Part shown: positions 4,667 through 23,022 of the stretch, piece after piece
Position numbering within the stretch: position 1 is the first letter of the stretch
How the letters are laid out: the number at the start of each line of letters is the position of its first letter
Assembly: GCA_002688435.1 (NCBI GenBank)
Contig: NZCW01000043.1
Span: forward strand, 23,730 to 87,729
DNA: 64,000 bases
Direction: 5' to 3'
DNA from: Dehalococcoidales bacterium
GTDB lineage: Bacteria > Chloroflexota > Dehalococcoidia > Dehalococcoidales > RBG-16-60-22
The notes under the pieces: model-generated
Seen by the model: the letters and a program-made list of their open reading frames with translations, nothing else
Told to the model about the DNA's origin: nothing
The model's database searches: none
Made by a program: the position numbers and the translations under genes

Positions 4667-7633
4667 ATGAGAAAAGAAATAGCTAAAATATGGGGTGTGG
4701 GCCTGACCGTAATCCTAGTGGCCAGCCTGCTGCTCGCGGCCGTGCCGATGGCTCAACCGGCACCGGCATCTGCTGGCACGCTTGGCTGGGGCGCAGAGAC
4801 CATCCCCACCACGACAGGTAAAGTCCTAGTCCCTGGAGCCAATGTTACTGACATGGATGTCTGTACAGCCGACCCGGATATCATCTGGGCCGTTGCTGAT
4901 ATTTCCTCAGGGGCAAGTAACGGAACCTACAAGTCTACCGACGCCGGTGTCTCCTGGACAAAGATAACCAATCACACCGGGGTAGGCACTGCCGCCGGAG
5001 GAGGCGTGCAACTGGTGGCCGTTGCCCCAGACGACCCGGACATCGTGGTGGTCGTGGCTGATAACAAGGAGGTCTATGCCACCACCAACGGTGGCACCAC
5101 TTGGGGCGACCTAACCACACCGAATGAGACCAGCACAACCGTTAATGACGCGGCAACCAATATCTACGACCTAGACGTCTCCACGGACGACGCCGGCATA
5201 AACTACGTTGGCGTGGCCGGTATTGATTCTGGGGCTAATGATGCCTCTGCAGACGCGATCAACACGGGTAATGTCTGGTACTTCAATATGGGCGCCGCGG
5301 CCCCGTCTTGGGTAGAAACAAACGACAAGACAGGTTTCGGTGCGGCTAACACGAACGTGACCACAGCTATGGCAGTGGCCTTCTCGCCTAGCTTCGCCTC
5401 GGACAAGGTAATGGTGGCCGTCACGGCGAATGTGACGGGAAATGTAAGTTTCGAGATGTGGAGCATGTCAAGCAAGGGCTGGAATGAGAGCGGTGCTTCC
5501 TTCACCAGCTACCCGGTATCACTGGTAGCTAACGCTGACGCCACGATTGCCACTCCGAGAGGTCTCTATGCCGCAGACATCTCACTGTCGCCGGACTACC
5601 TAGGCAGTGATGACTCCATGCGTACCGCCTTCGTCGGCTTGACGGTGGAAGGCTCTACCGCCAAGGACGGCATCTACCGTCTGAAAGACACCAGCAAGAA
5701 AGAGATGAAGGTGGCCATTGACGTGAACAGCGTGGCCTACGACGGCACCAACCTGGTCGCCGGCGAATTCGACAGCAACGTCTCCTATTACTGCGCCGAC
5801 CCGCTGGCAAGCTCGCCCACGGTCAGCACCACCGCTTCCCTGAAGAGAGCGGGTGGTAGCTCCCGTACCATAACTCGCTGGGCCGGCGTGGATGTACTCA
5901 CCGGAACCAGCGGCACGTCCAGCTCCCTCAATGTCTCCCGAGACAACGGCAAGAGCTACAACGGCATCAGCCTGGTTGATATCAGTACAGCAGCTGGGGA
6001 CGACAGTGGCACAAACGACCTTAACGATGTCGCGGTCTCAGCGGATGGCAGCACGATTTACCTGTCTGCTGATGACGGTACCAACCTGAGCATATGGCGC
6101 GGTGTTGATGGGGTCTGGGAAAGGGTGTTGGCGAAAGCTTCGGTAGCGAACACCATTGTCCGCATCGCTCCGGAAAACCCCGAATCGATCTACGTGGGGG
6201 AGACTGGTAGTGGCAAAAAGACCATCTACTACAGCAGCGAGGGTGGCGACACCAAGTGGTTCCAGCGCAGCTCCCGGTACGACGTCAAGGATTTCGCCGT
6301 GGAGAGCGACGATGTAATCTACGTAGCCGTGAATGCCGCCGGTTCGGTCAGCAAGAGCACCAATAGCGGCTTCACTTGGGGTACGTCCAAAGACGGCCTA
6401 CTGTTTGGTGGCAACAATGTCGCAATTCATAGCTTCGGTGAGGACCAACTGCTTCACACCAGCACCACCGGTTATGTCTCCTACTCCACCGACGGCAACT
6501 CCACCTGGGTGCAGATAAAGAAGCAGGTAAACTCCACATCCGGTACCATCCATGTGACTGCCAGCGGCCTGAACGACGGAGACTTCATCTACGCCGCCAG
6601 CGAAACCGCCAACCTGAATGTACGCCGATGGGAAGTCGGTACCAGCACTAGCTGGGGAGATATCATCAGCGGTACTCTCGCAACTGATCGTAATGCCGAT
6701 GACGACACCTCCGACACAGGCGAAACATTCCTCGCTTACGGAGCTGAGCTGATTGACGGCGTACTCTATGTCGTCGGCGTGGACGACGCGGCGGCGGATA
6801 GCTCATTGTTCCGGACCCTATCGCCGTCCACCGCTGCAAGCACCTCGGGCTGGAGCAACAAGCTGAGCACGAACGCTGACGATGAAGCGCTGACGCTCGG
6901 ATTCAGCTCATCCGATAGCGACGGCAACAACAAGCTATGGGGGATTGAGCCCGGTGATGACCAGCTCTTCAGCTTCGTCGATACCCTGCATACATTAGAG
7001 CCAGAACTGATCGGTCCGGAGGACGGAACGGAAATCGCGATAAACCCAGTGAGCGGTAACCCGTACAACGTGTCCTTCAGCTGGAGTCGTCCGTCCACGG
7101 CCAACAGATACAGTCTGGAGGTTTCTCTGGACGACGGCTTCTTCGAGGACGTCACCACCGAGACAGTACCTTCGACTACCACCACCACCACATCAGCTAC
7201 GATAGGCAAGGTACTGGTTGGTACTAACTTCAACGAAGGTACCACTTACTACTGGAGGGTCAGGGTAGCTTCGAACGGTCCGCTCTACAGCCCGTACTCC
7301 GAGGTCCGCAGCTTCACCGTTAGTTCGCTTCCGGCTCCTGCGGCGGCGGTAGTGGTTAAACCAGCTCCCGCGCCGATAGTCAGACCGGAGGTAGTGGTGG
7401 AGGCGCAGCCAGCACCGGTGATAAACCTTCCGGCACCGGTGGTAGAGGTACCCACGATAAACCTTCCGGCACCAGTGGTGAATATACCAGCACCACAAGA
7501 GGTGATCATCCCACCGGCACCGGCTCCCGCTCCCGCCGTTCCTACGGTAGCCATCTATGCCATCATCATCATCGGTGCCCTACTGGTGATCGCCTTGATC
7601 ATCCTGATAATGAGGACCCGACGCCCAATCTAA
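4667..7633 (+). CDS. Large secreted surface (S-layer-like) glycoprotein candidate. Its architecture is a signal peptide, Asp-box/BNR beta-propeller region, Fn3-like domain, Pro/Ala/Val-rich stalk and a C-terminal TM anchor.
   Basis: 988 aa. The N-terminal signal is MRKEIAKIWGVGLTVILVASLLLAAVPMAQPAPASA. Asp-box-like motifs include STDAGVSWTK, TTNGGTTWGD, SRDNGKSYNG, STNSGFTWG and STDGNSTW. About 14 N-X-S/T sequons are present by my count. A YYWRVRV Fn3-like motif is followed by the PAP-rich repeat INLPAPVVEVPT/INLPAPVVNIPA. The terminal helix is VAIYAIIIIGALLVIALIILIM followed by RTRRPI. Confidence 0.8.
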   Translation: MRKEIAKIWGVGLTVILVASLLLAAVPMAQPAPASAGTLGWGAETIPTTTGKVLVPGANVTDMDVCTADPDIIWAVADISSGASNGTYKSTDAGVSWTKITNHTGVGTAAGGGVQLVAVAPDDPDIVVVVADNKEVYATTNGGTTWGDLTTPNETSTTVNDAATNIYDLDVSTDDAGINYVGVAGIDSGANDASADAINTGNVWYFNMGAAAPSWVETNDKTGFGAANTNVTTAMAVAFSPSFASDKVMVAVTANVTGNVSFEMWSMSSKGWNESGASFTSYPVSLVANADATIATPRGLYAADISLSPDYLGSDDSMRTAFVGLTVEGSTAKDGIYRLKDTSKKEMKVAIDVNSVAYDGTNLVAGEFDSNVSYYCADPLASSPTVSTTASLKRAGGSSRTITRWAGVDVLTGTSGTSSSLNVSRDNGKSYNGISLVDISTAAGDDSGTNDLNDVAVSADGSTIYLSADDGTNLSIWRGVDGVWERVLAKASVANTIVRIAPENPESIYVGETGSGKKTIYYSSEGGDTKWFQRSSRYDVKDFAVESDDVIYVAVNAAGSVSKSTNSGFTWGTSKDGLLFGGNNVAIHSFGEDQLLHTSTTGYVSYSTDGNSTWVQIKKQVNSTSGTIHVTASGLNDGDFIYAASETANLNVRRWEVGTSTSWGDIISGTLATDRNADDDTSDTGETFLAYGAELIDGVLYVVGVDDAAADSSLFRTLSPSTAASTSGWSNKLSTNADDEALTLGFSSSDSDGNNKLWGIEPGDDQLFSFVDTLHTLEPELIGPEDGTEIAINPVSGNPYNVSFSWSRPSTANRYSLEVSLDDGFFEDVTTETVPSTTTTTTSATIGKVLVGTNFNEGTTYYWRVRVASNGPLYSPYSEVRSFTVSSLPAPAAAVVVKPAPAPIVRPEVVVEAQPAPVINLPAPVVEVPTINLPAPVVNIPAPQEVIIPPAPAPAPAVPTVAIYAIIIIGALLVIALIILIMRTRRPI
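7421..7479 (+). repeat. Tandem 36-nt period repeat inside the stalk-coding region
   Basis: ATAAACCTTCCGGCACCGGTGGT (7421-7443) recurs as ATAAACCTTCCGGCACCAGTGGT (7457-7479). Both copies encode INLPAPVV. Confidence 0.85.
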
Positions 7634-7769: not shown

Positions 7770-8885
7770 GCATCCTACCCGTAACCGCGTCCCGTATGCC
7801 GCTTGGCGGTCTCCAGCCTGTTCTCATTGAGTTTCCAAAGCAGAGCATCATCGGCCAGCAGTGCTATAATATGCCGAGAAACTCATCGGTACCCCGGGAC
7901 ATCAGAGCGTTCTTCGTATTCCCCTGATTGACAATGAAGTCCTCGTTCCAAAGTGCCCGGTAAACGACCACCGGTATGCCGCAGGCCATAATTTCCAGCG
8001 GCGGCGAGTTCCCGCCCTCAAACCTGGAGGTGGAAATAAACACATCCGCCAACGAAAACAGCCAGGCCATGAGGTCATCACCAACTCGCTCCCGGAAATC
8101 TATCCGGAACCCGGGCCTGACTTTCCGGACCAGCCTGGTGAAAGCTTCTTCCCGACCCACCGCCAGCAGCTTTACGCCGGGATTTACCCAGCAACAATAT
8201 TCAGAATCTTCAATATATCAAGCTCATTCTTCCACTTTATCCCTCTAATTAAAGCCATGACCACCTCCTCGCCGGTATTTTTACGCACCGGACTCAGGCA
8301 GAACACTTCCAGTTTCAGACCAATACCCACCCGGACCGCCGCCTTCGCCCAGGTCATACAGGTAGACCAGCCCCTCCAGCCAAGCCGAGGTGACAATCTT
8401 CTTCAGTGAGAGGTGGTAGGTTTCCCGGGTGACAAGGATATCACGGCTATTTTGAAAGAAAGACGGTTCGTAAGGCTGGGCGCAGTAAAAAACAGTACCT
8501 TTACCACTCCGGCAAACGACGGACTCCGTGAGGCAGAACGTGACGACATTAGTGTCGCACCCGGCGACGGCTTCCATCAGAGGCGTTAGCAGGTTGATAT
8601 CATGTCTAATCCGAGCAATTTGGTAACCGTGTCAATATCCAGATACCGGACGCCACGCCTCTTAACTATCCTGACCAGCGACTCCACAACCCTCAGCCAT
8701 GACGGCGGATTAACATAGCCCGCGGACGCTTCCAGCGGAAACCAACGATGGTCACCGGCCAGAGAAGTTATCATTATCTGGTGGCCTCTCCGAGTCAGGC
8801 CATTGGCCACCTCAAAAATATGCCTAGTGCCACCGGAAAGACTGGTCGTCCAAAGAGCAGAGTTTAGCCTGAGCCTATCCGCCAC
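7770..8885 (-). pseudogene. GT4-family glycosyltransferase, disrupted by at least four frame changes
   Basis: Consecutive fragments lie in different frames. The N-terminal fragment is 8586..8885 (LSGGTRHIFEVANGLTRRGHQIMI). Middle fragments are 8281..8577 and 8184..8396. The C-terminal Rossmann fragment is about 7864..8190 (PGVKLLAVGREE...STSRFEGGNSPPLEIMACGIPVV). A tail in a further frame reads ALLADDALLWKLNENRLETAKRH (about 7790-7863). Confidence 0.75.
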
Positions 8886-8926: not shown

Positions 8927-9451
8927 TCATCCGATAATGGAATAAGTCGCTTCCAACATATCCGGAGCGATAGCCTCCGGCGCTGCCTCTCCCTCGCTCA
9001 CCGGTGGCTGCCTCCCGATGAAGACAGTCCGACAACCGGCAGCCTTACCCATAGCAATATCGCTCATCATATCTCCCATCACGAAGGAATACTTGAGGTC
9101 AATATCATAATCCTTAACCGCTTGCCGTATCATACCAGGCTTCGGTTTACGGCAGTCACAGTTATCATCGGGGTGGTGGGGGCAATAGTAAATGGCGTCC
9201 ACCCGGGCACCTTCCCTGGCCAGCTCTCTCTTCATTTTTTTATGGATGTCCGCCAAGGTCTCCTCGGTGAAATAGCCCCGGCCAACGCCCGATTGATTAG
9301 TCACCACAATCACTTTAAAACCATGCTCATTGAGCAATTCTATAGCCCTGGCCGTATTGGGCAGCAATCTAAAATCCTCGGCACGGCAGCAGTAAGAGAC
9401 GTCTTCAGCCATGGTACCATCTCTATCCAGGAAAACAGCCCGGTCAGCCAT
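8927..9451 (-). CDS. gmhB: D-glycero-D-manno-heptose 1,7-bisphosphate phosphatase (HAD-IIIA)
   Basis: 174 aa. The motifs FLDRDGT, VVTNQSGVGRGYF, YYCPHHP and CDCRKPKPGM correspond closely to E. coli GmhB motifs recalled from memory. Confidence 0.9.
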   Translation of the reverse strand: MADRAVFLDRDGTMAEDVSYCCRAEDFRLLPNTARAIELLNEHGFKVIVVTNQSGVGRGYFTEETLADIHKKMKRELAREGARVDAIYYCPHHPDDNCDCRKPKPGMIRQAVKDYDIDLKYSFVMGDMMSDIAMGKAAGCRTVFIGRQPPVSEGEAAPEAIAPDMLEATYSIIG

Positions 9452-9804: not shown

Positions 9805-10827
9805 CTACCGCCTGGCCAATATATTGGCCAGTTTCCCGGGACTGCATTCTTTGAGGAGAGAAGCGATGTCCATTAAGGATACTGATTCCTTTTCCTCATC
9901 TATGCCATAAAGACTAAATCCATAATTTACCAGTCTATTTAGGTATTCCTCTGGCGACGAATCAAACCGCCTTATTGCCTCAGGTAGGAACTCGGTGATA
10001 ATTATCAAGTCTTTATTTTGGTTAATCATATTTTCCATTCCTTCAAGAACGGCCAGTTCGGCGCCTTCAACGTCTATCTTGACAAAGTCAATTCTACCAT
10101 TGTAATTACTGACGAAGCTGTCCAGGGTTTGTGTTTCAACCTCAATTGTGTCTCTGCCAAAGGTATATGTATCCTCGCCTTGTCTGGCTAAGGAATGGCT
10201 GCCAAGATTAGTTCTGTCTAAAAATAGCATCGCCCTCCCATTTATATTGGAGATGGCTTTTTGTATCGGGGTGACATTGTGATAGCCATTTATAGTTATA
10301 TTCTTTACTAGTAAATCAAAACTATGCGGATCAGGTTCAAAAGCGAAGACCTTTCCCTTCTCACCCGCCAGCCTGGCCATAATCAGCGTGAAATAGCCTA
10401 TGCTGGCTCCGATATCCAGACAGACCATCTCTCTGGTGATGACGCTTTCCACTACCTTGGTCATTTGTTTGTTGTAAATACCTGTGAAGACTAAATCTGG
10501 AGTAAGGTCTCCCATATCCCCGATATCAACACACATCTGGTGCTCTTGCACTGGAACTAAAATGACTCTTTCCTGCGGTATTAAAGCTTGATATAAGAAT
10601 GTATACAACTTCATAACCAGGGGAAATCGGCCCAGTCCTAGCCCTGACTCGGCAAAAAACCTGACGACCTTTACAAAATATGAATACAGCATATCATTCT
10701 TACTCTGGTTGACCACGACATACATGTACCGGTCTATCGCCGTACTCACCACCGCCCTTGCCCCAAGCCGGTAATAATCGGCTAAGTCCGTAGCGCCGCC
10801 GATAAAGCTTGCCGGAAGAGGGTGCAC
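9805..10827 (-). CDS. FkbM-family SAM-dependent methyltransferase
   Basis: 340 aa. The CLDIGASIGYFTL (SAM-binding) and FAFEPDPHSFDLL motifs, plus VKIDVEGAE, are typical of the FkbM domain. Confidence 0.8.
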   Translation of the reverse strand: MHPLPASFIGGATDLADYYRLGARAVVSTAIDRYMYVVVNQSKNDMLYSYFVKVVRFFAESGLGLGRFPLVMKLYTFLYQALIPQERVILVPVQEHQMCVDIGDMGDLTPDLVFTGIYNKQMTKVVESVITREMVCLDIGASIGYFTLIMARLAGEKGKVFAFEPDPHSFDLLVKNITINGYHNVTPIQKAISNINGRAMLFLDRTNLGSHSLARQGEDTYTFGRDTIEVETQTLDSFVSNYNGRIDFVKIDVEGAELAVLEGMENMINQNKDLIIITEFLPEAIRRFDSSPEEYLNRLVNYGFSLYGIDEEKESVSLMDIASLLKECSPGKLANILARR

Positions 10828-11052: not shown

Positions 11053-11706
11053 ATGTTAGTATTGGGGCACGCCGGAATCACCCTAGGCGCGGCCGTACTG
11101 TTAAGCGGTGCGCTCTCCAGAAACAGCTACTCGATTTACGGGGCAGGGAAGAGACAGGGGCAACCCGGAGCATCGGGCGGACTTTTGCCTTCCCGGGACC
11201 GCACCGCTTTTAACAGCCCATCCTGGACCACCTTCCTGTCACGCTATATGCACCCAAGGCTTCTGCTTATCAGTTCACTTCTCCCGGACATCATTGATAA
11301 ACCGATAGGGGTTTTTTTCTTGCGTGAGACACTCAGCAATGGGCGCATATTTTGCCATACCTTTCTCTTTCTCGTCCTGCTTACCCTGACCGCGATTTAC
11401 CTCTACCGACGTTACGGCGAAACCAGGCTCTTCCCCCTCTCTTTCGGCACCTCCACTCATCTCGTCTTTGACCAGATGTGGCATACTCCCCAGACTCTCT
11501 TCTGGCCCGTTTTAGGCCTCACCTTCGATAAGCTAGAGTTTACCACCTTTACCAGCTGGATATCATATCTTGTCCACAACCTACTGGCATACCCCGATGT
11601 ATTTATTCCAGAGCTGATTGGTGCCGTAATAATCATCGGGTTTACCGGGATACTGGTGCGCAGAAGAAGTGTCCGCACCTTTATCCGCTACGGACAAATC
11701 CGGTAA
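11053..11706 (+). CDS. Membrane-bound metal-dependent hydrolase-like protein (DUF457/YdjM-like)
   Basis: 217 aa. The N-terminus is MLVLGHAGITLGAAVLL and several hydrophobic segments follow. A GGAGGAG SD and a TATAAT (11025-11030) lie upstream. Confidence 0.45.
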   Translation: MLVLGHAGITLGAAVLLSGALSRNSYSIYGAGKRQGQPGASGGLLPSRDRTAFNSPSWTTFLSRYMHPRLLLISSLLPDIIDKPIGVFFLRETLSNGRIFCHTFLFLVLLTLTAIYLYRRYGETRLFPLSFGTSTHLVFDQMWHTPQTLFWPVLGLTFDKLEFTTFTSWISYLVHNLLAYPDVFIPELIGAVIIIGFTGILVRRRSVRTFIRYGQIR

Positions 11707-11795
11707 CAGCTTCTGGTGGCCGGTAAACCCGGGACAATACCGATAGATTGTGCTATTACCCGAGCAGTGCTATACTTTATCACAGGGGCTACTCA

Positions 11796-14228
11796 ATGCG
11801 ACAAAACGCTTTGTTTTCACCGAAGCTCGTGGCTGGCATACTAGTAGCCCTGGCTTTCGGCATCGCCCTGTATTTCCGCATTGCCTTACCCTATGACCGG
11901 GTATTTGTCGACGACCTGATAAAATTCACCTCGTTTGACCCTTACTACCATATGCGCCTGGTGGACAGCCTGGTCCTCAATTTTCCCCACCGCATCCCCT
12001 TTGACCCCTATGCCCATTTCCCTGACGGCGTCCCGGTGACCTGGGCTCCTTTCCTCGACTGGTTGCTGGCCGGCATCATCCTGGTGTTAAGCCTAGGTTC
12101 ACCTACCCAGCACACAATAGATATTATCGGCGTTTATTTCCCGGCAGTTTTAGGCGCACTAACCGTCATCCCGGTCTTCTTCGTCGGTAAAGTACTGTTC
12201 AATCGCTGGGTGGGCGTAATAGCCGCTGGCCTGATTAGCATTGCCCCGGGCGAATTTATGAGCCGGTCAATACTCGGCTTCACCGACCACCATGTCGCCG
12301 AGGTGTTTTTTACCACCGTGATCATGCTGTTCCTCATTCTGGCGGTGAAGAGTGCCCGGCAGAAAAAACTGACTTTCCGCCATCTGAAGCGCCCAGACTG
12401 GACAACTATCGCCAAGCCTCTGGTGTACACCCTACTTACCGGTGTTTTCCTGGGAATCTTTATTCTCACCTGGGTCGGGGCACCACTCTTCGTTTTCATT
12501 ATTTTCGCCTGCTTTCTGGCTCAGTTCACTATTGACCAAAGGAACGGTATCTCCACCGACTACCTGGCTATCGTGGGCATTCCGTCTTTACTAATTGCCA
12601 CGGCAATCAGCCTGCCCCTTGCCACTCCGTTTTTAATCAGCTCCCTGCATTTAGCCATGCTGGCACTAGCTATCCTCGCGCCAGCGGTACTGGCTGGTAT
12701 CTCCCGGCTGCTAACCGTTAGAAGGCTAAAGCCAGTCTATTCGACACGTCTTGTCCTGGCTTACTATACCGGTGACAAAACACGCTACATCCCCACCCCG
12801 GTAAAACTTACTCCCGGGAACACATACCTCCTGACCCTGGTTGGAATCGGTCTGGTGGGACTACTAATTCTTTCCGTTGTCAGTCCCGCCTTCAACACGG
12901 TAGTGAGGGATACACTAGGCAGTATCTTCCTCCCGCACCTGCTCGGAGAAACCGTGCTTGAAATGCAGTCTATCTTTTTCCCCCATGGCAACTTCTCTTT
13001 CCAGGCCGTCTGGGGAAATTTCACCACTGGCTTCTTCCTCAGCCTTATTGCTTTAGGCATATTGATTTACCAAGTGAATAAACACGGTGAAGTTGATAAG
13101 ACACTACTGGTGGTCTGGAGCCTGATTATTCTAGCAGCTACCATAGGGCAACGCCGATTTGCTTATTACATGGCGGTTAATGTGGCCCTGCTCACCGGCT
13201 ACGTGTCATGGCTAATTCTCGAATTCGCTGGTTTCAAGAAACTGGTGGCCAAGTCGGTGGATTCAGAACCAACGGTGAAGAAAAAAGATGGCCAACCGAA
13301 AAAGACCCGGAGGGAAATCGTCCTCCCTACCAGCCCGGTATACATGGCCCTGGGATTACTAGTTGTCTTTTTCATCAGTTTCTTCCCCAATATCGGACCA
13401 GCCAAGAATATGGCCAGCCAGGCCCATTTTACTCCCAGCGATGCCTGGTACGAGTCACTCACCTGGTTAAATGAAAATACGCCGGAACCGTTTGGTGATG
13501 CCGACTTCTACTACGAACTATATGAACCACCCTCTCCGGGAGAAAACTATGACTACCCAGAAAATGCCTATGGCGTCATGGCCTGGTGGGACTATGGCCA
13601 CTGGATTACCCGCATCGGCCGCCGTCCCGTAAATGCCAGTCCGGCTACCTGGGGCAGCTGTGCCACTTTTTTCGGTGCCCGGGATGAAGCTACCGCTAAT
13701 GCAACGATATATGACATGGGGATAAAGTATGTCGTCGTCGACTATGACATAGCCTTCGGCAAATTCCACGCCATCCCCACCCTGCTCAACGAGAACAAAG
13801 ACACCTTTTACGAGTTATGCTACCAGTCTCAAGAAGGTAAGCTCAGACCCATAACCATCTTCCGCCCTAATTATTACCTCTCCCTCCCTATCAGGCTATA
13901 CAATTTCAACGGTCAAGAAGCGGTCGTCTCGGAGCAGGTGACGGTAGTTTCTTGCGAGTGGAAGACAGATCGAGAAGGTGAACTCTATAAGGAAATCACC
14001 AGCGCCCAATTTTTCCCCAGCTACGAAGAAGCGAAAGCCTACGTCGGCGGAGTCCCCACCGACCTCTTAGGACGCTATGAAATAATCGGCACCAACCCAT
14101 ATGTCAGCCCAATACCCTTGAAAGCACTGGAACACTTTAAACTCATTTATCAATCAGCCAGCCAGATAGAGGACCGGCGTATAGGAGGCTGGACTCCAGA
14201 AGTAAAAATCTTTGAGTACGTGAAATGA
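11796..14228 (+). CDS. Oligosaccharyltransferase of the STT3/AglB/PglB superfamily (AglB-like)
   Basis: A polytopic N-terminal domain is followed by a soluble C-terminal domain. The motifs are FDPYYHMR (first external loop), TDHH (12285-12293), WWDYGHW (13584-13598, the family hallmark) and a downstream DIAFGKFHAI (DK/MI-type region). I prefer the ATG at 11796 (MRQNALF...) to the track's TTG at 11748. Confidence 0.85.
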   Translation: MRQNALFSPKLVAGILVALAFGIALYFRIALPYDRVFVDDLIKFTSFDPYYHMRLVDSLVLNFPHRIPFDPYAHFPDGVPVTWAPFLDWLLAGIILVLSLGSPTQHTIDIIGVYFPAVLGALTVIPVFFVGKVLFNRWVGVIAAGLISIAPGEFMSRSILGFTDHHVAEVFFTTVIMLFLILAVKSARQKKLTFRHLKRPDWTTIAKPLVYTLLTGVFLGIFILTWVGAPLFVFIIFACFLAQFTIDQRNGISTDYLAIVGIPSLLIATAISLPLATPFLISSLHLAMLALAILAPAVLAGISRLLTVRRLKPVYSTRLVLAYYTGDKTRYIPTPVKLTPGNTYLLTLVGIGLVGLLILSVVSPAFNTVVRDTLGSIFLPHLLGETVLEMQSIFFPHGNFSFQAVWGNFTTGFFLSLIALGILIYQVNKHGEVDKTLLVVWSLIILAATIGQRRFAYYMAVNVALLTGYVSWLILEFAGFKKLVAKSVDSEPTVKKKDGQPKKTRREIVLPTSPVYMALGLLVVFFISFFPNIGPAKNMASQAHFTPSDAWYESLTWLNENTPEPFGDADFYYELYEPPSPGENYDYPENAYGVMAWWDYGHWITRIGRRPVNASPATWGSCATFFGARDEATANATIYDMGIKYVVVDYDIAFGKFHAIPTLLNENKDTFYELCYQSQEGKLRPITIFRPNYYLSLPIRLYNFNGQEAVVSEQVTVVSCEWKTDREGELYKEITSAQFFPSYEEAKAYVGGVPTDLLGRYEIIGTNPYVSPIPLKALEHFKLIYQSASQIEDRRIGGWTPEVKIFEYVK

Positions 14229-14911
14229 AATGCTTGATACTGGCCGGCGGTTTTGGCACCCGACTCTACCCTCTAACCATTCACCAAGCAAAGGCTTTGC
14301 TAGAATATAAAGGCAAGCCGTTACTGACCCATATCGTGGACAAAGTCCCTCAGGAGATAGACATTCTCATTTCCACCAACCGGAAATTTGAGACCGGTTT
14401 TCGCCGCTGGCAGGAGACGAGAGCCCGACCGGTAGAAATCTGCGTTGAAGATGTCAGGACCGAGGAGGGGAAAAAGGGGGCGGTCGGCTCGCTAAACCTC
14501 TGGATTGAGCAGAAACATATTACGGAAGACCTACTAGTTATCGCCGGTGATAACTATTTTGAATTCGACCTCTTGCAGTTTATGGCTAGTTACGATGGCA
14601 AGAATACACTGGTAGCCATTTATGACATTAGCGATAAAAGTAAAGCCGGCCAGTTTGGCGTCGTTCGGGTGGAGGAGCACCGGATAATTGAGCTGGAAGA
14701 AAAACCCGTCAGGCCCAGGTCCAGTCTCATTGCCACCGCCTGTTATATTTTCCCGCCCAGAATATTCCCCTGGCTCTCTCGTTACTGCGCCGCCGGCGAA
14801 CGGGACAACCTGGGCAACCTCATTACTTATCTTGTAGATACCGATGAAGTTCACGCTTATACTTTCACAGAACAATGGCTTGACATAGGCAGTATCAAGA
14901 ACCTAGCATAA
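14225..14911 (+). CDS. Sugar-1-phosphate nucleotidyltransferase (HddC/RmlA-like small NTP-transferase)
   Basis: 228 aa. It has the LILAGGFGTRLYPLT signature. The start overlaps the AglB stop codon (ATGA), implying translational coupling. Confidence 0.8.
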   Translation: MKCLILAGGFGTRLYPLTIHQAKALLEYKGKPLLTHIVDKVPQEIDILISTNRKFETGFRRWQETRARPVEICVEDVRTEEGKKGAVGSLNLWIEQKHITEDLLVIAGDNYFEFDLLQFMASYDGKNTLVAIYDISDKSKAGQFGVVRVEEHRIIELEEKPVRPRSSLIATACYIFPPRIFPWLSRYCAAGERDNLGNLITYLVDTDEVHAYTFTEQWLDIGSIKNLA

Positions 14912-14969: not shown

Positions 14970-16442
14970 ATGCGTAGTAAGGTTATACTCATTAATCCGC
15001 GCTTCACGGAAGAAGTCACTTTATTCAATCTCCCCATAGGTATACTGCACCTTGGCTCCTGGCTTATGAAGAATGGGTATGAAGTGAAGGTGATAGATGC
15101 CTTACACAGTAAGAATCAGAGCGAATTTTCGATGAAGCTATCGCAAGAGTTGGATGACGCTATCTGTGTTGGACTCAGTGTTATTAGTACCCAGATACCC
15201 AGTGCTCTCATGATTACTGGTTCAGTCAAGGCAGTCAATAGAAACATCCCGGTAATTTGGGGGGGAGCTCATCCAACGTTATATCCTGAACAGACAGCGG
15301 CCAGTGAGTTGGTTGACTTTGTTGTTGCTGGAGAAGGAGAACAGCCTCTATTGAAGATACTATCAGCTTTGGGGAGTGGCACCAAAATAGGTAAAATAGT
15401 CCAGAGTGAAGATAGTATTAAGATGGATGAGCTACCCTGGATAAGTCCCGAATTAGTGGGTGATATATCTCCAGATATGACCCTTAAAAAGATCACCGAA
15501 AAAACGATGTATGGATTCCCAATACTTACTGGAATGGGCTGCCCATATCACTGTACATTTTGTATGAATTCCGTCATCGACCAGAAGTATAAAAGAAGAA
15601 GTGCCACCAACATACTGGACAATATCCAGGCACTGGCTAAAAACTATGCTATAGAAAGGATCTGGTTTGTTGACGAAAATTTCTTTGGTGATAAGAGGCG
15701 GGCCAAGGAATTTGTCGATGGCACATTGAATAGAGAGTTAAAATTCAAATGGTTTTCTGGTGGTAGAACCACCTACTTTAGAGATAATTACTTGGGCTCC
15801 GAGGAGTTTCTCAATAAGGTAAAGGAATCAGGATGCCAGGTGATGGGGACTGGTGCGGAGTCAGGCTCTCAGAGAATATTGGACATGGTATGCAAGGGGA
15901 CAAAAGTGTGGGATACCATAAATATGGCCGAAAAGGTTAGCAAATCGGGCATGATAGCTAACTTTTCATTTATGATAGGTCTTCCCACGGAAACAAAAGC
16001 CGAATACAAAATGACCCTCAAACTAATAGACCAGATAGTAAAGATAGATCCACGATTCTACATCTTCGGCCCGCAAATATATCGACCATATCCCGGGTCC
16101 GTACTATATAACGAATGTCTCAAGTATGGCATGAAAAAGCCGGAAACACTAGAGGAATGGGCAGATAGTCCTTACATACATTTCGAATTTTCCAAGAAGA
16201 GTCATTTCAGTAAAGAGCTGTATCCTTGGGTTCTGTATGATAAGGATTTAACGGAAATCGTATTTTATGCCACTCTTATGGGAAAACAACCGGGAAACAA
16301 AATTGTTACCAGTATTTTAAGGGCCATAGGCAGATGGAGATGTCTGAATTTTAATTTTAGATTTCCAATTGAAAAGAAGGTGTATGGTCTGATAAGAGGC
16401 TCATTTATTGAAATACTGCTACGAAGATGGAAGTTTGTCTGA
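14970..16442 (+). CDS. B12-binding-domain radical SAM enzyme (class B rSAM, methyltransferase-like)
   Basis: 490 aa. An N-terminal Rossmann-like B12-binding region is followed by the radical SAM cluster motif CPYHCTFC. Confidence 0.75.
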   Translation: MRSKVILINPRFTEEVTLFNLPIGILHLGSWLMKNGYEVKVIDALHSKNQSEFSMKLSQELDDAICVGLSVISTQIPSALMITGSVKAVNRNIPVIWGGAHPTLYPEQTAASELVDFVVAGEGEQPLLKILSALGSGTKIGKIVQSEDSIKMDELPWISPELVGDISPDMTLKKITEKTMYGFPILTGMGCPYHCTFCMNSVIDQKYKRRSATNILDNIQALAKNYAIERIWFVDENFFGDKRRAKEFVDGTLNRELKFKWFSGGRTTYFRDNYLGSEEFLNKVKESGCQVMGTGAESGSQRILDMVCKGTKVWDTINMAEKVSKSGMIANFSFMIGLPTETKAEYKMTLKLIDQIVKIDPRFYIFGPQIYRPYPGSVLYNECLKYGMKKPETLEEWADSPYIHFEFSKKSHFSKELYPWVLYDKDLTEIVFYATLMGKQPGNKIVTSILRAIGRWRCLNFNFRFPIEKKVYGLIRGSFIEILLRRWKFV

Positions 16443-16575: not shown

Positions 16576-16610
16576 TAAAGCCCGGCAACAGACACTAAAC
16601 CAAGGCAGTT

Positions 16611-18146
16611 ATGGAGTCAAGAGGAATTTTAGATAAGATTAAGACCCTGGACGAGTTAGCAGTGGTTATCCAGGCTTTGAAAAAGAAAGGCGAGACCGTG
16701 GTCCACTGCCACGGGGTATTTGATTTGCTTCACCCCGGGCATATCCGGCACTTTGAAGCCGCCAAACGGGAAGGGGATATACTCGTTGTCACCATAACCG
16801 CGGATGAAGATGTAGACAAAGGACCGGGGCGACCAGTCTTCAATCAAAGACTCCGTATGGAGTCTATTGCCTCCCTCCAGTGCGTCGATTATGTCGCCAC
16901 CAACGAGTGGCCCACGGCGGTTAAGACGATTCAGAAGCTCAAGCCGGATATCTATGTAAAAGGAAGTGATTACGCCAATCGAGAAAATGACCTGACCGGC
17001 CAAATTTATCAGGAGGAGGCGGCCATCAAATCCGTCGGGGGAGGGATTCATTTTACAGACGAGCCGGTCTTCAGCTCCACCAAGCTCTTGAACCTCCATT
17101 TTGATGTCTACCCTGAGGAAGCCAGCCGATTCTTGGCCGAATTCCGCGGTAAATACTCGGCCGGGAATATCGTTAAACGACTAAACGACCTCAGCCAGAT
17201 GAAAGTGATGGTCATCGGAGACACCATAATTGACCAGTACTGTTACTGCCATACCTTAGGGAAATCGCTCAAGGACAATATCATTACCACCAGATATCTG
17301 CGGGAGGAAACTTTTGCCGGCGGCGTCCTGGCAGCGGCCAACCACATGGCCGGTTTCTGTCAGGAAGTCCATCTGGTCACCTGCCTAGGGACACAAAATA
17401 GCTACGAGGAATTTATCCGGGCTCACTTAAAGCCCAATATCAAGCCAAAGTTCTTCTGCCGTGACGATGCGCCCACCGTGGTGAAACGCCGCTTCGTAGA
17501 GCCGGACTTTCTTTCCAAGATGTTCGAAATCAGCTACCTTGACGACCACGAACTGGCTCAACCCCTGAACCAGGAGGTTTATGACTATTTAGGAACCAAC
17601 ATCAACGGCCATGACCTAGTCGTGGTAACTGATTTCGGGCATGGATTTATCGGACAAACGATCACCGAGCTGCTGGGTGAGAGAGCCAAATTCCTAGCCG
17701 TTTGTAGCCAGACCAATAGCGCCAATACCGGTTTTAACCTCATCACCAAGTATCCCCGAGCCGATTACGTTTGCCTCGATGAAGCCGAAATACGGCTGGC
17801 TTGTCATGATAAATTCGGCCGGCTCGAGGATTTAATAACGAGGGTAGCCAAAGAGCTTAGCTGCCACCACGTAGCTGTCACCCGCGGCCGTCATGGTTCA
17901 CTGACCTACGCCGCGGATGATGGCTTCTTTGAAATCCCTGCTCTATCAGATGAGGTGATAGACCGGGTTGGCGCCGGCGATGCCTACCTCGCGGTTACGT
18001 CTCCTTGCGTCGCCAATGGCAATCCGATGAATGTAGTTGGCTTTATCGGCAATGCCGTTGGTGCCCTGAAAGTTCGCATTGTTTGTAATCGGGATTCGGT
18101 GGAGCCGGTACCGCTTTTCAAATTTATTTCGGCACTCCTGAAATAA
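16611..18146 (+). CDS. Bifunctional heptose-phosphate nucleotidyltransferase / PfkB sugar kinase (HldE/RfaE-like, with domains in reversed order)
   Basis: 511 aa. The N-terminal roughly 150 aa match RfaE domain II (HCHGVFDLLHPGHIRHF ... KGSDY, HxGH cytidylyltransferase fold). The C-terminal roughly 330 aa are a PfkB-type kinase (DxVGAGDA motif: RVGAGDAYLA). Confidence 0.75.
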   Translation: MESRGILDKIKTLDELAVVIQALKKKGETVVHCHGVFDLLHPGHIRHFEAAKREGDILVVTITADEDVDKGPGRPVFNQRLRMESIASLQCVDYVATNEWPTAVKTIQKLKPDIYVKGSDYANRENDLTGQIYQEEAAIKSVGGGIHFTDEPVFSSTKLLNLHFDVYPEEASRFLAEFRGKYSAGNIVKRLNDLSQMKVMVIGDTIIDQYCYCHTLGKSLKDNIITTRYLREETFAGGVLAAANHMAGFCQEVHLVTCLGTQNSYEEFIRAHLKPNIKPKFFCRDDAPTVVKRRFVEPDFLSKMFEISYLDDHELAQPLNQEVYDYLGTNINGHDLVVVTDFGHGFIGQTITELLGERAKFLAVCSQTNSANTGFNLITKYPRADYVCLDEAEIRLACHDKFGRLEDLITRVAKELSCHHVAVTRGRHGSLTYAADDGFFEIPALSDEVIDRVGAGDAYLAVTSPCVANGNPMNVVGFIGNAVGALKVRIVCNRDSVEPVPLFKFISALLK

Positions 18147-18218: not shown

Positions 18219-19220
18219 ATGAAAAAAACAACCACGGTATTCATTACCGGCGGCGCCGGCTATGTTGGCTCCATCCTGGTACCCAAGCTCCTGGATAAGG
18301 GATACCGGGTCAAGGTACTTGACCTCTATCTCTATGGCGAAGACGTCCTGGATACAGTCAAAGACCACCCCCACTTGGAGCAAATCAAAGGAGACATCCG
18401 AGACCGGGCTCTTCTGGAAAAAGTGATTCCCGGTACCGACGCCTTATTCCACCTCGCCTGCATCTCTAATGACCCCAGTTTTGAGCTAGACCCTCAGCTG
18501 GGCAAGTCCATCAATTATGACGCCTTTCTCACCCTGGTAGCAGTAGCCAAGCAGTGCCGGGTAAAGCGGTTCATCTACGCCTCCACTTCCAGCGTATATG
18601 GTATTAAAAAAGAGGATGATGTCACCGAAGAGCTACTCCCCGAGCCGCTGACGGACTACTCCAAATACAAGGCCTTGTGCGAAGATGTCCTACTTAAAGA
18701 GCAGTCGCCTGACTTCACCACCGTGGTTATTCGTCCAGCCACAGTCTGCGGTTACTCTCCCCGCTTAAGGCTGGACTTGACGGTAAACATCCTGACCAAT
18801 CTGGCCGTTAATACCGGCCGCATTACCGTATTCGGTGGCCAACAGAAGCGCCCTAATATCCACATCGAAGATATGACGGATTTGTACGTTCAGCTTCTGG
18901 AACTACCCGATGAGAAGATTGCCGGTAAAATATTTAACGTCGGATACGAAAATCACCCGGTTTCCGAAATTGCCGAGATAGTCAAAGGGGTGGTCGGAGA
19001 AGATGGACTGGAAATTATCACCACCCCGAGTAGTGATAACCGCTCTTACCACATTTCCTCGGAAAAAATCGGGCGGGAACTAGGTTTTAAACCAAAGCAC
19101 ACCATTGATGAGGCCGTAAAAGACCTCTGCGACGCCTTTAAAGCTGGCAAGGTTCCCCACCCGCTAGATGACATCCGGTACTACAATATAAAGACCATGT
19201 TGGCCAGGCAGCTCCAGTAA
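18219..19220 (+). CDS. NAD-dependent nucleotide-sugar epimerase/dehydratase (extended SDR)
   Basis: 333 aa. It has GGAGYVGS (GxxGxxG) and YSKYK (YxxxK). Confidence 0.8.
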   Translation: MKKTTTVFITGGAGYVGSILVPKLLDKGYRVKVLDLYLYGEDVLDTVKDHPHLEQIKGDIRDRALLEKVIPGTDALFHLACISNDPSFELDPQLGKSINYDAFLTLVAVAKQCRVKRFIYASTSSVYGIKKEDDVTEELLPEPLTDYSKYKALCEDVLLKEQSPDFTTVVIRPATVCGYSPRLRLDLTVNILTNLAVNTGRITVFGGQQKRPNIHIEDMTDLYVQLLELPDEKIAGKIFNVGYENHPVSEIAEIVKGVVGEDGLEIITTPSSDNRSYHISSEKIGRELGFKPKHTIDEAVKDLCDAFKAGKVPHPLDDIRYYNIKTMLARQLQ

Positions 19221-19240: not shown

Positions 19241-20398
19241 ATGAGAGTGGAATATTCGTATTTATTAAAACAGTTTGAGGTGAAAGAAGGCGAAGCGAAA
19301 GTCAAATACGTGGACCTGCCAAAGCAGGCAAATGTCGAGGCCATACTTACCGACATCAAAGAGATTCTGCTGAAGACAGGACAATTTACCCTCGGTCAGC
19401 CGGTGGCCGAGTTTGAAGCCGGGTTTGCCAAGCTATGTAAGACCAAGTATGCTGTGGGCCTTAACTCCGGGACGGACGCCCTTTTCCTTGCCTTGAAAGC
19501 CCTGAATATAGGCTCCGGAGATGAAGTTATTACCGCACCCAATAGCTTCTTCGCCACGGCTGCGGTAATCGCCATTGCCGGAGCAAAACCGGTCTTCGTT
19601 GATGTCAATAACGAATACAATATCGATGCCGAGCTGATAGAGCGGGCCATAACCCATCGGACAAAAGCGATTTTGCCGGTACATTTAACCGGCAACCCTG
19701 CCGATATGCCAAGGATAATAAATATTGCCCGACGGCATGACTTGCACATCATCGAAGACGCCGCTCAGGCGGTCAGCGCCACCATTGACGGGCAACCGAC
19801 CGGCTCCTTCGGCATTGCCGGAGGCTTCAGCTTCCACCCTCTGAAGAATCTTAACGTGTGGGGAGACGGGGGCATTACGACCACGAATTCCAGAGAACTA
19901 TCCGATAGGATCAGGTTACTGAGAAACCACGGCTTGAAAACCCGGGATGAGATTGAGGTTTTCGCCTATAACAGCCGGCTGGATACCCTGCAGGCTATCG
20001 TGGCCAATCGGTTATTAAACGCCCTGGATGCCATAACCGATGCCAGGATAAAGAACGCCAAAACGTATGATGACGGCCTGTCCGACTTAACAGACCATAT
20101 TACCCTGCCACCCAGAAAGAGTAACGTAAAGCAGGTCTACCATACCTACGTAATATTAGCCAAGGAGAGGAATAAGCTAGGTACTTATCTGGCCGAGAAG
20201 GGAATAGAAACCAAAGTCCATTACCCGATACCCCTGCACCTACAGCCGGCCAGCAAATACCTAGGACATCAGGAAGGAGATTTCCCGGTATGCGAAGCCC
20301 AGGCAAAGTCTATTTTAACGCTGCCGGTCCACCAGCACCTAGCGGATGACCAGGTAGCCTACGTGATTGATAGCATCAGGAAATTCTACCGGAAATAA
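19241..20398 (+). CDS. DegT/DnrJ/EryC1/StrS-family PLP-dependent nucleotide-sugar aminotransferase
   Basis: 385 aa. Family-typical motifs include GQFTLGQPVAEFE, HLTGNPADM and FSFHPLKNL (PLP lysine region). Confidence 0.85.
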   Translation: MRVEYSYLLKQFEVKEGEAKVKYVDLPKQANVEAILTDIKEILLKTGQFTLGQPVAEFEAGFAKLCKTKYAVGLNSGTDALFLALKALNIGSGDEVITAPNSFFATAAVIAIAGAKPVFVDVNNEYNIDAELIERAITHRTKAILPVHLTGNPADMPRIINIARRHDLHIIEDAAQAVSATIDGQPTGSFGIAGGFSFHPLKNLNVWGDGGITTTNSRELSDRIRLLRNHGLKTRDEIEVFAYNSRLDTLQAIVANRLLNALDAITDARIKNAKTYDDGLSDLTDHITLPPRKSNVKQVYHTYVILAKERNKLGTYLAEKGIETKVHYPIPLHLQPASKYLGHQEGDFPVCEAQAKSILTLPVHQHLADDQVAYVIDSIRKFYRK

Positions 20399-22848: not shown

Positions 22849-23022
22849 TTCAATCTTCCTCTTGACCAGTATCGGGTAAACTATTTTTTTAAAATTCAAT
22901 TAATCGTGGGGATTAGCTTTGAAACGAGTTTCGCACATTCCTATTTTAGGTTTTATTTGCATCTGGTTGACACCACCTTTTAATAGCATTTAGCCCGGTG
23001 CTAATATCATGTTTTACCTCTT

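Follow-up and report, generated by a model that had tools for sequence, protein, structure and literature searches.

To our knowledge, textbook accounts confine oligosaccharyltransferase-dependent bacterial N-glycosylation to PglB of Campylobacterota and some Desulfobacterota. The PglB proteins of Campylobacter lari and C. jejuni are single-subunit enzymes of the bacterial cytoplasmic membrane, with a GT-C fold, a WWDYG motif and an MI-type motif, and belong to pgl clusters that comprise PglC, A, J, H, I, K and bacillosamine genes. The AglB subfamily TIGR04154, designated ‘archaeosortase A system-associated’ and reportedly defined by Haft in 2012, occurs in Methanomicrobia, Halobacteria, and Archaeoglobi, and archaeal AglB has been solved as AfAglB-L (PDB 3waj, 3wak, 5gmy, 7e9s). 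Archaellum gene clusters of Chloroflexota were acquired from Methanotecta archaea, and the sole bacterial archaellin solved carries O-linked rather than N-linked densities (PMC12488501).

The gene described here, aglB, lies in a 64,000-nucleotide stretch of a Dehalococcoidales genome (contig NZCW01000043.1), the whole of which is termed the window. Its product shares with PglB the fold, the reaction type, the single subunit, the bacterial cytoplasmic membrane and WWDYG, but the host phylum differs, the motif is DK-type instead of MI-type, and aglB is not part of a pgl-type cluster, with no PglC/PglK-type gene in the window and with heptose/amino-sugar nucleotide, radical SAM enzyme, and methyltransferase genes as neighbors. 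Unlike the hosts of AfAglB-L and TIGR04154, the host is a bacterium, presumably using a bacterial polyprenol instead of dolichol. The archaellum clusters and aglB have the same inferred donor (Methanotecta) and recipient (Dehalococcoidia), and both are archaeal cell-surface machinery fixed in a monoderm bacterial lineage, although the archaellum is a different machinery and AglB is not mentioned in that paper (PMC12488501).

An AglB-type oligosaccharyltransferase with intact catalytic motifs

The aglB reading frame (11748..14228, + strand) encodes 826 aa from a TTG at 11748 or 810 aa from an ATG at 11796, the latter being the start chosen by gene callers:

11796..14228, + strand: aglB, encoding an archaeal AglB-type oligosaccharyltransferase of one subunit and 810 aa (TIGR04154, Pfam STT3 and AglB_core, PDB 3waj, fold match)

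The product scored 592.1 bits (E = 2e-177) against the NCBIfam model TIGR04154 of the archaeal AglB subfamily (trusted cutoff 450), 121.6 bits against Pfam STT3 (PF02516, N-terminal membrane domain; cutoff 24.5), and 63.6 bits against the AglB_core-like Pfam model (cutoff 27). In phmmer searches of the PDB, AfAglB-L (3waj) aligned with residues 16–661 (E = 2e-55), and PglB was absent from the matches at E ≤ 0.01. An earlier note on this DNA, made from the letters alone, had proposed an STT3/AglB-type enzyme and an HMM search that could overturn it if no significant STT3-family hit appeared; the cutoffs of the STT3 and AglB models were both exceeded, and the assignment is borne out by these models, by PDB 3waj and by the predicted fold. 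Within the STT3/AglB/PglB oligosaccharyltransferases (GT-C, CAZy GT66), the product is thus of the AglB and not of the PglB type.

The predicted fold comprises a GT-C core of 13 transmembrane (TM) helices and a C-terminal mixed alpha/beta domain, the same predicted architecture as that of AfAglB-L. The K/R-rich loops at residues 185–201, 309–344, and 478–514 are cytoplasmic, a positive-inside pattern that fits an N-in/C-out topology. WWDYG follows the last TM helix (515–541) and is thus predicted to be extracytoplasmic, whereas a cytoplasmic position would, according to the earlier note, have spoken against the enzyme. The structure comparison that the note proposed relied on an AlphaFold model of moderate quality only (mean pLDDT 68, catalytic loops below 50), for which the best Foldseek matches were the AfAglB-L structures (E = 4e-23, TM 0.57), followed by eukaryotic STT3A and STT3B and yeast Stt3. 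PglB (3rce) was much more distant (rank 18, E = 8e-7, TM 0.40), and the GT-C enzymes ArnT and DPY19 were among the weaker matches. The aglB product and AfAglB-L are collinear over residues 16–661, but only about 22% identical in the Foldseek alignment, and the C-terminal peripheral domains beyond residue 661 are unlike those of AfAglB-L.

The motifs FDPYYHM (residues 47–53, nt 11934–11954), TDHH (163–166, nt 12282–12293), and WWDYGHW (597–603, nt 13584–13604) lie in the translated reading frame where the earlier note had placed them. The external loop 1 Asp, DxH, TIXE, WWDYG, and the DK motif with an insertion (..GK) are all shared with AfAglB-L, and conservation was assessed among 45 homologs with 53–71% identity to the aglB product:

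11937..11939, + strand: codon of D48 in FDPYY of external loop 1, the first of the catalytic Asp residues; aligns with AfAglB-L GNDPWYY; invariant
12285..12293, + strand: D164-H165-H166, predicted second metal-binding motif (DxH), aligned with AfAglB-L NDHH; D164 and H166 invariant
12951..12962, + strand: T386-V-L-E389, TIXE motif in external loop 5, aligned with AfAglB-L TIAE; E389 invariant, T386 in at least 90%
13584..13598, + strand: W597-W-D-Y-G601, pocket predicted to accommodate the Ser/Thr at the +2 position of a sequon; W597, W598, D599, and G601 invariant
13740..13763, + strand: D649...G655-K656, DK-type motif with insertion (D649-YDIAFG-K656), aligned with AfAglB-L DIEMETGK; D649 and K656 in at least 90%

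Residues 649–660 read DYDIAFGKFHAI, and R454 is also invariant across the 45 homologs. From these features we infer catalytic activity, and the makeup of the glycan, its lipid carrier and the acceptor proteins proposed below are inferences as well.

Bacterial host, distribution and phylogeny

The chromosome that carries the gene is genuinely that of a marine Chloroflexota bacterium (Dehalococcoidales). All five bacterial markers that the earlier note had named in the window were recovered on the contig that carries aglB:

32198–33196: plsX
34577–35275: rplI
35277–36653: dnaB (TIGR00665, 512 bits)
57767–58201: nusB
58229–58486: acpP

Rfam and tRNA scans for taxonomic markers returned nothing within the window. 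The earlier note had raised a chimeric archaeal/bacterial assembly as a possible undoing of its claim, and the fusion of an archaeal fragment to a bacterial contig during assembly or binning might seem to account for the nearest relatives outside Chloroflexota being archaeal and for a GC content of the sugar-gene island below that of its flanks. However, no fewer than 15 contigs, assembled independently from different samples by different assemblers and in different projects (Tara/ENA, NCBI MAG GCA_030744715.1, JGI, and Logan), carry the identical AglB protein, with a gene order common to the six compared, and since the same locus was assembled independently this often it is not a chimera. Related copies are flanked by bacterial markers on both sides, as exemplified by a homolog adjoining tuf-secE-nusG-rplKAJ on a 166-kb contig, and dozens of Dehalococcoidia species carry aglB on contigs of up to 1.2 Mb. 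The GC content of the aglB region (0.51) equals that of the host, which indicates that the gene has ameliorated. An artefact or contamination is therefore effectively refuted.

The gene is no isolated case: its clade numbers more than 1,700 proteins, mostly in Dehalococcoidia MAGs, and some Dehalococcoidia genomes have more than one AglB paralog. Many relatives are labeled by NCBI or JGI as ‘oligosaccharyl transferase, archaeosortase A system-associated’ or ‘STT3 domain-containing’. Dehalococcoidia AglB is thus already auto-annotated in databases, and full-text searches of the open-access literature found no paper that discusses this enzyme in these bacteria. Among the best ~240 of these relatives for two Dehalococcoidia AglB queries, there was no named isolate.

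The nearest methanogen AglBs are 33–39% identical to the aglB product in the best tblastn segment. The phylogeny that the earlier note had called for was built by neighbor-joining and rooted solely on AfAglB-L; the bacterial AglBs are monophyletic (bootstrap 87/100) and nest among the Methanotecta AglBs of Methanocellales, Methanosarcinales, and ANME-1 (71% for the nesting, 50% for the exact sister group). This nesting suggests one old transfer of aglB from archaea to bacteria.

Gene neighborhood of aglB

Through translational coupling, aglB forms part of a series of seven genes that point the same way and lie within a larger heptose/amino-sugar gene island, and the ATGA overlap with the downstream nucleotidyltransferase gene that the earlier note had reported is present in the sequence. 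The genes around aglB are:

7864..8885, − strand: fragmented GT1/GT4 glycosyltransferase, pseudogene (split ORFs; Pfam Glycos_transf_1 on the C-terminal piece)
8927..9451, − strand: GmhB, D-glycero-D-manno-heptose 1,7-bisphosphate phosphatase (NF006506, 187 bits, cutoff 178)
9805..10827, − strand: FkbM-family methyltransferase
11053..11706, + strand: YdjM-family membrane protein, directly upstream of and co-directional with aglB
14225..14911, + strand: sugar-1-phosphate nucleotidyltransferase, ATGA overlap with aglB (Pfam NTP_transferase, 118 bits)
14970..16442, + strand: B12-binding radical SAM enzyme, probable sugar C-methyltransferase (Pfam B12-binding and Radical_SAM)
16611..18146, + strand: HldE-like bifunctional heptose kinase/nucleotidyltransferase with reversed domain order (CTP_transf_like, PfkB; rfaE domains I and II)
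18219..19220, + strand: NAD-dependent sugar epimerase/dehydratase
19241..20398, + strand: DegT/PseC-type sugar aminotransferase (PseC 262 bits, under its cutoff)
20448..21446, + strand: NDP-sugar 4,6-dehydratase-like enzyme
21463..22899, − strand: second B12-binding radical SAM enzyme
23023..23784, − strand: TylF-type O-methyltransferase

The nucleotidyltransferase gene also lies downstream of aglB in seven other Dehalococcoidia loci (56–74% identity), and the GT1/GT4 pseudogene is similarly broken in all five independent assemblies covering that region. A promoter scan of the operon gave a count at chance level, and terminators were only about 1.9 SD above shuffles.

The window harbors no intact glycosyltransferase, initiating enzyme or flippase, the sole glycosyltransferase being the pseudogene; the assembly of a lipid-linked glycan must be encoded outside the window, or may be missing. 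Of the 263 ORFs lying no more than 5 kb from aglB in 38 Dehalococcoidia loci, the families met most often were the sugar epimerase/dehydratases with 11 members, NTP-transferases with 10, Wzx-type flippases with 9, and GT2 with at least 5. One Dehalococcoidia locus has an agl-like cluster with a flippase, GT1, a UDP-sugar dehydrogenase and GT2, and the glycan islands around aglB differ between lineages. Genomes with TIGR04154 members would be expected to encode archaeosortase A and PGF-CTERM substrates as well; here, no archaeosortase gene was identified among the annotated ORFs of the window, and exosortase/archaeosortase families were not within the 25 commonest neighbor families of the 38 loci.

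Proposed N-glycosylation and candidate acceptors

Taken together, the best explanation of the whole, to which we assign a probability of about 0.78, is that a catalytically competent N-oligosaccharyltransferase of the AglB lineage is at work in this Dehalococcoidales bacterium. The steps are modeled by homology with AfAglB-L. The 13 TM helices would hold the C-terminal globular domain and two acidic loops at the outside of the cytoplasmic membrane, where D48, D164, H166, and E389 would hold a divalent metal that activates the amide of the acceptor Asn, and W597, W598, D599, and K656 would bind the +2 Ser/Thr of the N-X-S/T sequon. R454 would contact the phosphate of a polyprenyl-phosphate-linked glycan, and proteins exported by Sec would receive this glycan as a single block. 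Among the co-directional genes, those for the nucleotidyltransferase, HldE-like enzyme, epimerase/dehydratases, aminotransferase and B12-radical-SAM enzyme, together with the nearby GmhB and methyltransferase genes, may supply a methylated, aminated heptose or deoxyhexose to this glycan. The gene itself appears to have passed long ago from a Methanocellales/Methanosarcinales-like archaeon to an ancestor of the Dehalococcoidia and would have been under purifying selection since. Such a set of steps would amount to a complete version of the archaeal-style surface N-glycosylation system that the earlier note had raised.

That note had also pointed to a large surface protein as the probable substrate, and such a protein is indeed encoded in the window:

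4667..7633, + strand: surface protein of 988 aa, secreted, BNR/Sortilin-like and held by a conserved anchor at the C-terminus; putative acceptor for AglB

The family has a shared leader (MKKKI.KIWGVGL...AAPVSA|GT, signal peptide, with the bar before GT) and a conserved C-terminal TM segment with an RTRRPV tail. The description ‘sequon-rich’ holds in that the 14 N-X-S/T sequons (1.42 per 100 aa) are the highest in count and density of the 41 window ORFs analyzed, but not in relation to the Ser/Thr/Asn-rich composition of the protein, as shuffling gave 10.8 (z = 1.1). The protein and its 115 homologs have 7.8 sequons against 7.3 after shuffling (reversed motif, 11.4). The sole conserved sequon column, N611-S-T, lies within an Asp-box, and position by position the reversed motifs are conserved just as well, so that sequon conservation is uninformative in this family. 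The tail did not match the PGF-CTERM model; the only match to known sorting signals was sub-threshold (GG_III-CTERM, E = 0.035), and in about 1 Mb of loci this type of tail was found only on copies of the same gene. A PDB sequence search with the protein gave no matches, and no tandem repeats were found in it.

Whether these proteins belong together bears on a further reading, in which AglB is a functional N-oligosaccharyltransferase that acts mainly on exported proteins whose genes lie elsewhere (for example archaellins, pilins, solute-binding proteins, or reductive-dehalogenase-associated proteins) and the adjacency to the 988-aa protein is incidental. We place this at somewhat under an even chance. 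No homolog of the 988-aa protein was found near aglB in any of 80 related loci. On three long contigs the surface-protein gene adjoins hisS or ribosomal protein genes, and no aglB was found in the 10 kb around it. The family shows no sequon enrichment either, and the claim of a gene next to its probable substrate is weak in view of these comparisons. Moreover, Dehalococcoidia have archaella of Methanotecta origin, and in archaea AglB typically has archaellins among its substrates (PMC12488501), although the O-linked densities of the sole solved bacterial archaellum structure count against archaellins as N-glycosylated targets. On the side of the 988-aa protein, it is secreted and membrane-anchored and has the most sequons in the window, and oligosaccharyltransferases are promiscuous, so that any protein that is exported and carries a sequon could serve as acceptor. 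A density of about 0.8 sequons per 100 aa is also similar to that of the Haloferax S-layer glycoprotein. The 988-aa protein may be regarded as a weak candidate for an AglB substrate.

A departure from protein N-glycosylation altogether appears improbable. AglB could have been repurposed for a non-protein acceptor (lipid, polysaccharide, or cell-wall polymer), for another residue or for hydrolysis releasing free oligosaccharide, as ArnT and DPY19 use other acceptors with the same fold, and as the pocket has changed to WVDYG or WGDYG in a Dehalococcoidaceae subclade, where acceptor recognition seems to be evolving within the clade. However, the window copy retains the metal ligands and the full Ser/Thr pocket (WWD and K656), all with little or no variation among the 45 homologs, and scores above the trusted cutoff of the AglB subfamily model. 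Still less probable, and hardly to be expected, is an inactive relic of the old transfer: the neighboring glycosyltransferase has decayed, but the 810-aa reading frame of aglB is intact, its catalytic residues are kept at 53–71% homolog identity, it is coupled in translation to a conserved downstream gene, and paralogs are retained in some genomes.

An AglB of the methanogen/haloarchaeal subfamily has been stably kept throughout a bacterial class that is both large and abundant in the environment. Should it be active, bacterial N-glycosylation would have a wider phylogenetic range, and aglB would represent a third transfer of envelope machinery from Methanotecta to Chloroflexota, after the archaellum and other archaeal genes. 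Active homologs would also offer new single-subunit oligosaccharyltransferases for glycoengineering, including the natural WVDYG/WGDYG variants. A more far-reaching view, which we consider rather unlikely, is that Dehalococcoidia adopted the cell-surface building of Methanotecta, with AglB N-glycosylation, polyprenyl-monophosphate-linked heptose-containing glycans on S-layer-type proteins that bear an unrecognized conserved C-terminal sorting signal, and, in archaellated members, such glycans on archaellins as well. If true, it would constitute a second, independent bacterial N-glycosylation system, far more widespread than PglB, with a possible link to peptidoglycan loss in parts of the Dehalococcoidia. 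AglB makes it testable how these monoderm, S-layer-bearing and partly peptidoglycan-free bacteria construct their envelopes. By analogy only, the 988-aa protein may be an S-layer or other abundant envelope protein, as it resembles the BNR/Asp-box S-layer marker of D. mccartyi (PMC6646388): both are large, secreted Dehalococcoidia proteins with BNR/Sortilin-type repeats.

Family identity and catalytic residues of the window AglB

The aglB gene described in the earlier note is present as an ORF at 11748..14228 (+), listed with 826 aa from a TTG start or 810 aa from the ATG at 11796, and public assemblies call the 810-aa ATG form. Its product is deposited at NCBI (MAG15370.1 / MDP6577047.1, "Dehalococcoidales bacterium") and is labelled dolichyl-diphosphooligosaccharide--protein glycosyltransferase by JGI. 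In the profile searches that the note had proposed, the protein scored above cutoff against Pfam STT3 (121.6 bits; cutoff 24.5) and AglB_core-like (63.6 bits; cutoff 27), and against one NCBIfam family, TIGR04154 ([quoted passage not shown]; 592 bits, trusted cutoff 450). Among all PDB sequences, the top match was Archaeoglobus fulgidus AglB-L (AfAglB-L; 3waj, E = 2e-55), with a collinear alignment across residues 16-661, while eukaryotic STT3A/B aligned to the N-terminal membrane region only and the Campylobacter-type bacterial enzyme PglB was absent at E <= 0.01. An AlphaFold2 model built from 45 homologs was moderate (pLDDT 68, pTM 0.68, catalytic loops <50), and its Foldseek matches point the same way as the sequence: AfAglB-L structures lead (E = 4e-23, TM 0.57), STT3 of human and yeast comes next, and PglB of C. 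lari is only 18th (E = 8e-7, TM 0.40). Because the profile, PDB sequence, and Foldseek results all favour AglB over PglB, the window protein is, by every testable criterion, a member of the AglB family, specifically of TIGR04154, and not a PglB.

The motifs reported earlier lie where they had been placed, and the catalytic residues align with those of AfAglB-L.

Motifs of the window AglB (810-aa numbering) and their AfAglB-L equivalents by alignment
FDPYYHM, residues 47-53: D48 = D of GNDPWYY
TDHH, residues 163-166 (nt 12282-12293): D164-H-H166 = NDHH
T386-V-L-E389 = TIAE, the TIXE motif of EL5
GQRRFAYY, containing R454 = GQNRFAYY
WWDYGHW, residues 597-603 (nt 13584-13604): WWDYG = WWDYG
DYDIAFGKFHAI, residues 649-660: D649...G-K656 = DIEMETGK, the DK motif with insertion

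In an alignment of 45 Dehalococcoidia homologs, each 53-71% identical to the window AglB, residues D48, D164, H166, E389, R454, W597, W598, D599, and G601 are invariant, and T386, D649, and K656 are conserved at 90% or more. A hydropathy scan and the model helices predict a 13-TM, N-in/C-out layout, with K/R-rich loops (185-201, 309-344, and 478-514) on the cytoplasmic side, and acidic loops and the 534-810 domain carrying WWDYG on the outer side. A cytoplasmic WWDYG, which the earlier note would have taken as evidence against its assignment, was rejected since this domain is predicted outside. We consider it probable (nearly 0.8) that the window AglB is a working N-oligosaccharyltransferase (N-OST).

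In one Dehalococcoidia AglB subclade, the second Trp of WWDYG is replaced by Val (homologs L022:9842-12580, L025, L027, and L040) or Gly (L003), with three of the five copies coming from MAGs labelled Dehalococcoidaceae. TIXE is kept in all five and DHH clearly in four, and the two copies examined at full length (L022 and L040) share an extra hydrophobic insertion that is missing from the window AglB. These copies represent natural variation in the sequon +2 pocket.

Bacterial host and origin of aglB

The bacterial setting claimed in the earlier note was borne out by the following genes, and the window also encodes a DnaD-domain gene, a DnaC-like gene, and a bacterial-type malate dehydrogenase.

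32198-33196, plsX
34577-35275, rplI
35277-36653, dnaB, directly after rplI (TIGR00665, 512 bits)
57767-58201, nusB
58229-58486, acpP

An identical AglB is encoded on at least 15 contigs from independent assemblies, whose sources include Tara Oceans, the NCBI MAG GCA_030744715.1, JGI 3300035205, and Logan ERR868468, and the six of these contigs that were compared have one gene order around aglB. The GC content at aglB (0.51) is like that of the surrounding chromosome. The archaeal/bacterial chimeric assembly that had been raised as an alternative is excluded by these independent contigs, the bacterial genes in the window, and the host-like GC content.

The two genes directly after rplI-dnaB, at 36720-38748 (+), encode a DnaD-domain protein and then a 513-aa product in which two DnaC/IstB-like AAA+ modules stand in tandem; such a duplicated helicase loader is unusual. 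As listed, the 513-aa ORF begins at a TTG and overlaps the DnaD gene; its true start probably lies further downstream.

More than 1,700 relatives of the window AglB were found in the protein database at E <= 1e-10. The best 120 share 50-100% identity, those with names come from Dehalococcoidia, Dehalococcoidales, or Chloroflexota MAGs, and many already carry the archaeosortase A system-associated name of TIGR04154. Of the 537 stretches with a relative in the species-representative genome collection, the ~52 best lie almost all in MAGs of Dehalococcoidia or other Chloroflexota, on contigs of up to 1.2 Mb such as JBAZEO010000001, and the next relatives are those of Methanosarcinales, Methanocellales, and Methanophagales at 31-39% identity. 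One homolog, on a 166-kb contig, directly adjoins tuf-secE-nusG-rplK-rplA-rplJ. The phylogenetic placement suggested in the earlier note was obtained from a neighbour-joining tree (71 sequences, 770 columns), in which the bacterial AglBs form one clade nested among methanogen and ANME-1 AglBs; bootstrap values were 87/100 for bacterial monophyly, 71/100 for the nesting, and 50/100 for a Methanocellales-group sister, in a distance tree rooted on a single outgroup, AfAglB-L, that itself belongs to Methanotecta. The bacterial clade (median identity 48%, minimum 32%) has diverged as deeply as the archaeal set. Together, the distribution, the nesting, and this deep divergence suggest one old archaea-to-bacteria transfer followed by long residence. 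The clade also includes sequences from a Nitrospirota bin (L031), a Verrucomicrobiota bin (L061), and a "bacterium" (L051) on contigs of 3-4 kb, for which mis-binning of Dehalococcoidia fragments, and not additional transfer, is the most likely explanation.

Three MAGs each carry a pair of AglB paralogs, located on separate contigs: JAGGZD01 (L008 and L015), DUEX01 (L004 and L026), and CAYVES01 (L034 and L035). A. fulgidus and some methanogens also carry AglB paralogs.

Archaellum clusters of Dehalococcoidia and Anaerolineae were recently inferred to come from the donor group inferred here for aglB, Methanotecta, in a paper in which AglB goes unmentioned (PMC12488501). No paper on AglB of Dehalococcoidia or Chloroflexota was found in the open-access full-text literature, and no cultured isolate is named among the ~240 best relatives. 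Automated database pipelines have already named these proteins. The unusual aspect is the host, and the upkeep of aglB by a whole bacterial class.

Gene neighbourhood of aglB

The window aglB stands second in a run of eight genes on one strand, with gaps of 89, -4, 58, 168, 72, 20, and 49 nt, and the ATGA overlap noted earlier is real, with the aglB stop overlapping the ATG of the next gene at 14225-14228.

gene 1, ydjM-like
gene 2, aglB, 11796-14228 (+)
gene 3, sugar-1-P nucleotidyltransferase
gene 4, B12-radical SAM
gene 5, HldE-like kinase/nucleotidyltransferase, 16611-18146 (+)
gene 6, epimerase
gene 7, DegT/PseC-type aminotransferase
gene 8, 4,6-dehydratase-like

The opposite-strand flanks encode GmhB (above the NCBIfam cutoff), an FkbM methyltransferase, a second B12-radical SAM protein, and a TylF O-methyltransferase, and taken together the genes of the region suggest synthesis of a nucleotide-linked heptose or deoxy-sugar that is methylated and aminated. 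The HldE-like enzyme has a cytidylyltransferase-like N-terminus and a PfkB kinase C-terminus, a domain order reversed relative to E. coli HldE. Across the sugar-biosynthesis genes (14000-24000), the GC content is 0.45-0.51 (mostly <0.48) compared to 0.53-0.57 in the flanks, and the region looks like a variable glycan island beside a resident aglB of host-like GC.

The sole glycosyltransferase of the window (GT1/GT4, 7864-8885 (-)) is reduced to three or four short ORFs. The gene is a genuine pseudogene within the glycan island and not a sequencing error because it is similarly broken in all five independent assemblies covering the region (L081-L083, L085, and L086); L082 shows slight differences in its ORF calls. 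Neither a flippase nor an initiating transferase is present in the window. The 824-aa product of 24074-26548 (-) begins with a membrane region. Its only matches, all weak, are spermidine-synthase-like, and it resembles membrane-bound proteins of the polyamine aminopropyltransferase-like kind.

For 263 ORFs lying no more than 5 kb from aglB at 38 Dehalococcoidia loci, the most frequent families were NDP-sugar epimerase/dehydratases (11), NTP-transferases (10), Wzx-type flippases (9), Rhomboid proteases (7), and GT2 (at least 5). Each of these families is limited to roughly one locus in four, and many aglB copies lie amid housekeeping genes. One locus has a compact agl-like cluster (aglB, flippase, DUF2206, FkbM, GT1, UDP-sugar dehydrogenase, epimerase, and GT2), and the nucleotidyltransferase downstream of aglB is kept in seven other loci at 56-74% identity. 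The Rhomboid count (7/263) may include one syntenic block of related genomes; in Haloferax, S-layer N-glycosylation is affected by a rhomboid protease.

The 988-aa surface protein as proposed acceptor

The secreted 988-aa protein at 4667-7633 (+), accession MAG15364.1, belongs to a Chloroflexota-specific family (249 matches, mostly full-length at 900-1100 aa) whose members share a signal peptide and are labelled "hypothetical" or "BNR-like" in databases. D. mccartyi has an S-layer marker that also carries a BNR/Asp-box annotation (PMC6646388), which makes a surface-layer role plausible by analogy. The most conserved part of the family is the C-terminal tail, ...PAPAPAVP[ST]WAIYAIIIIGAVLVIALIVLIMRTRRPV. 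This P[ST]WAIYAIIIIGAVLVIALIVLIMRTRRPV tail follows a Pro/Ala-rich linker in the window copy (7451-7633) and in homologs P0121-P0240, and the rest of the family is 40-50% identical. It matched no known sorting-signal model in NCBIfam, PGF-CTERM included, and its best score (GG_III-CTERM, E = 0.035) was below cutoff; the tail may serve in sorting or anchoring as a signal of a kind not yet recognised.

The earlier note placed aglB next to its probable substrate, and this pairing is weak. The window copy has 14 sequons compared to 10.8 expected from composition, and the family mean is 7.8 compared to 7.3 expected, with 11.4 for a reversed control motif. One sequon is well conserved, N611-S-T (76/112 sequences), within the Asp-box STDGNSTW. 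No homolog of the surface protein was found near aglB at any of 80 loci, and aglB is not within 10 kb of the surface gene on any of three long contigs carrying that gene. Adjacency of the two genes carries little weight as evidence for a substrate. OSTs are promiscuous, the protein is exported, and sequons are present, so it is still a reasonable acceptor, although we hold it to be the preferred substrate with much lower confidence than we hold AglB to be active. The archaeal-type OST in a bacterial chromosome is supported (TIGR04154 and the bacterial genes); the adjacent substrate and complete glycosylation system are unproven.

In another Dehalococcoidia genome (L090:10001-15899), two tandem surface-family paralogs of 914 and 1010 aa lie downstream of hisS. 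The gap upstream of the surface gene is 275 nt in this genome compared to 920 nt in the window, and the tandem paralogs and upstream gaps are consistent with strongly expressed envelope genes.
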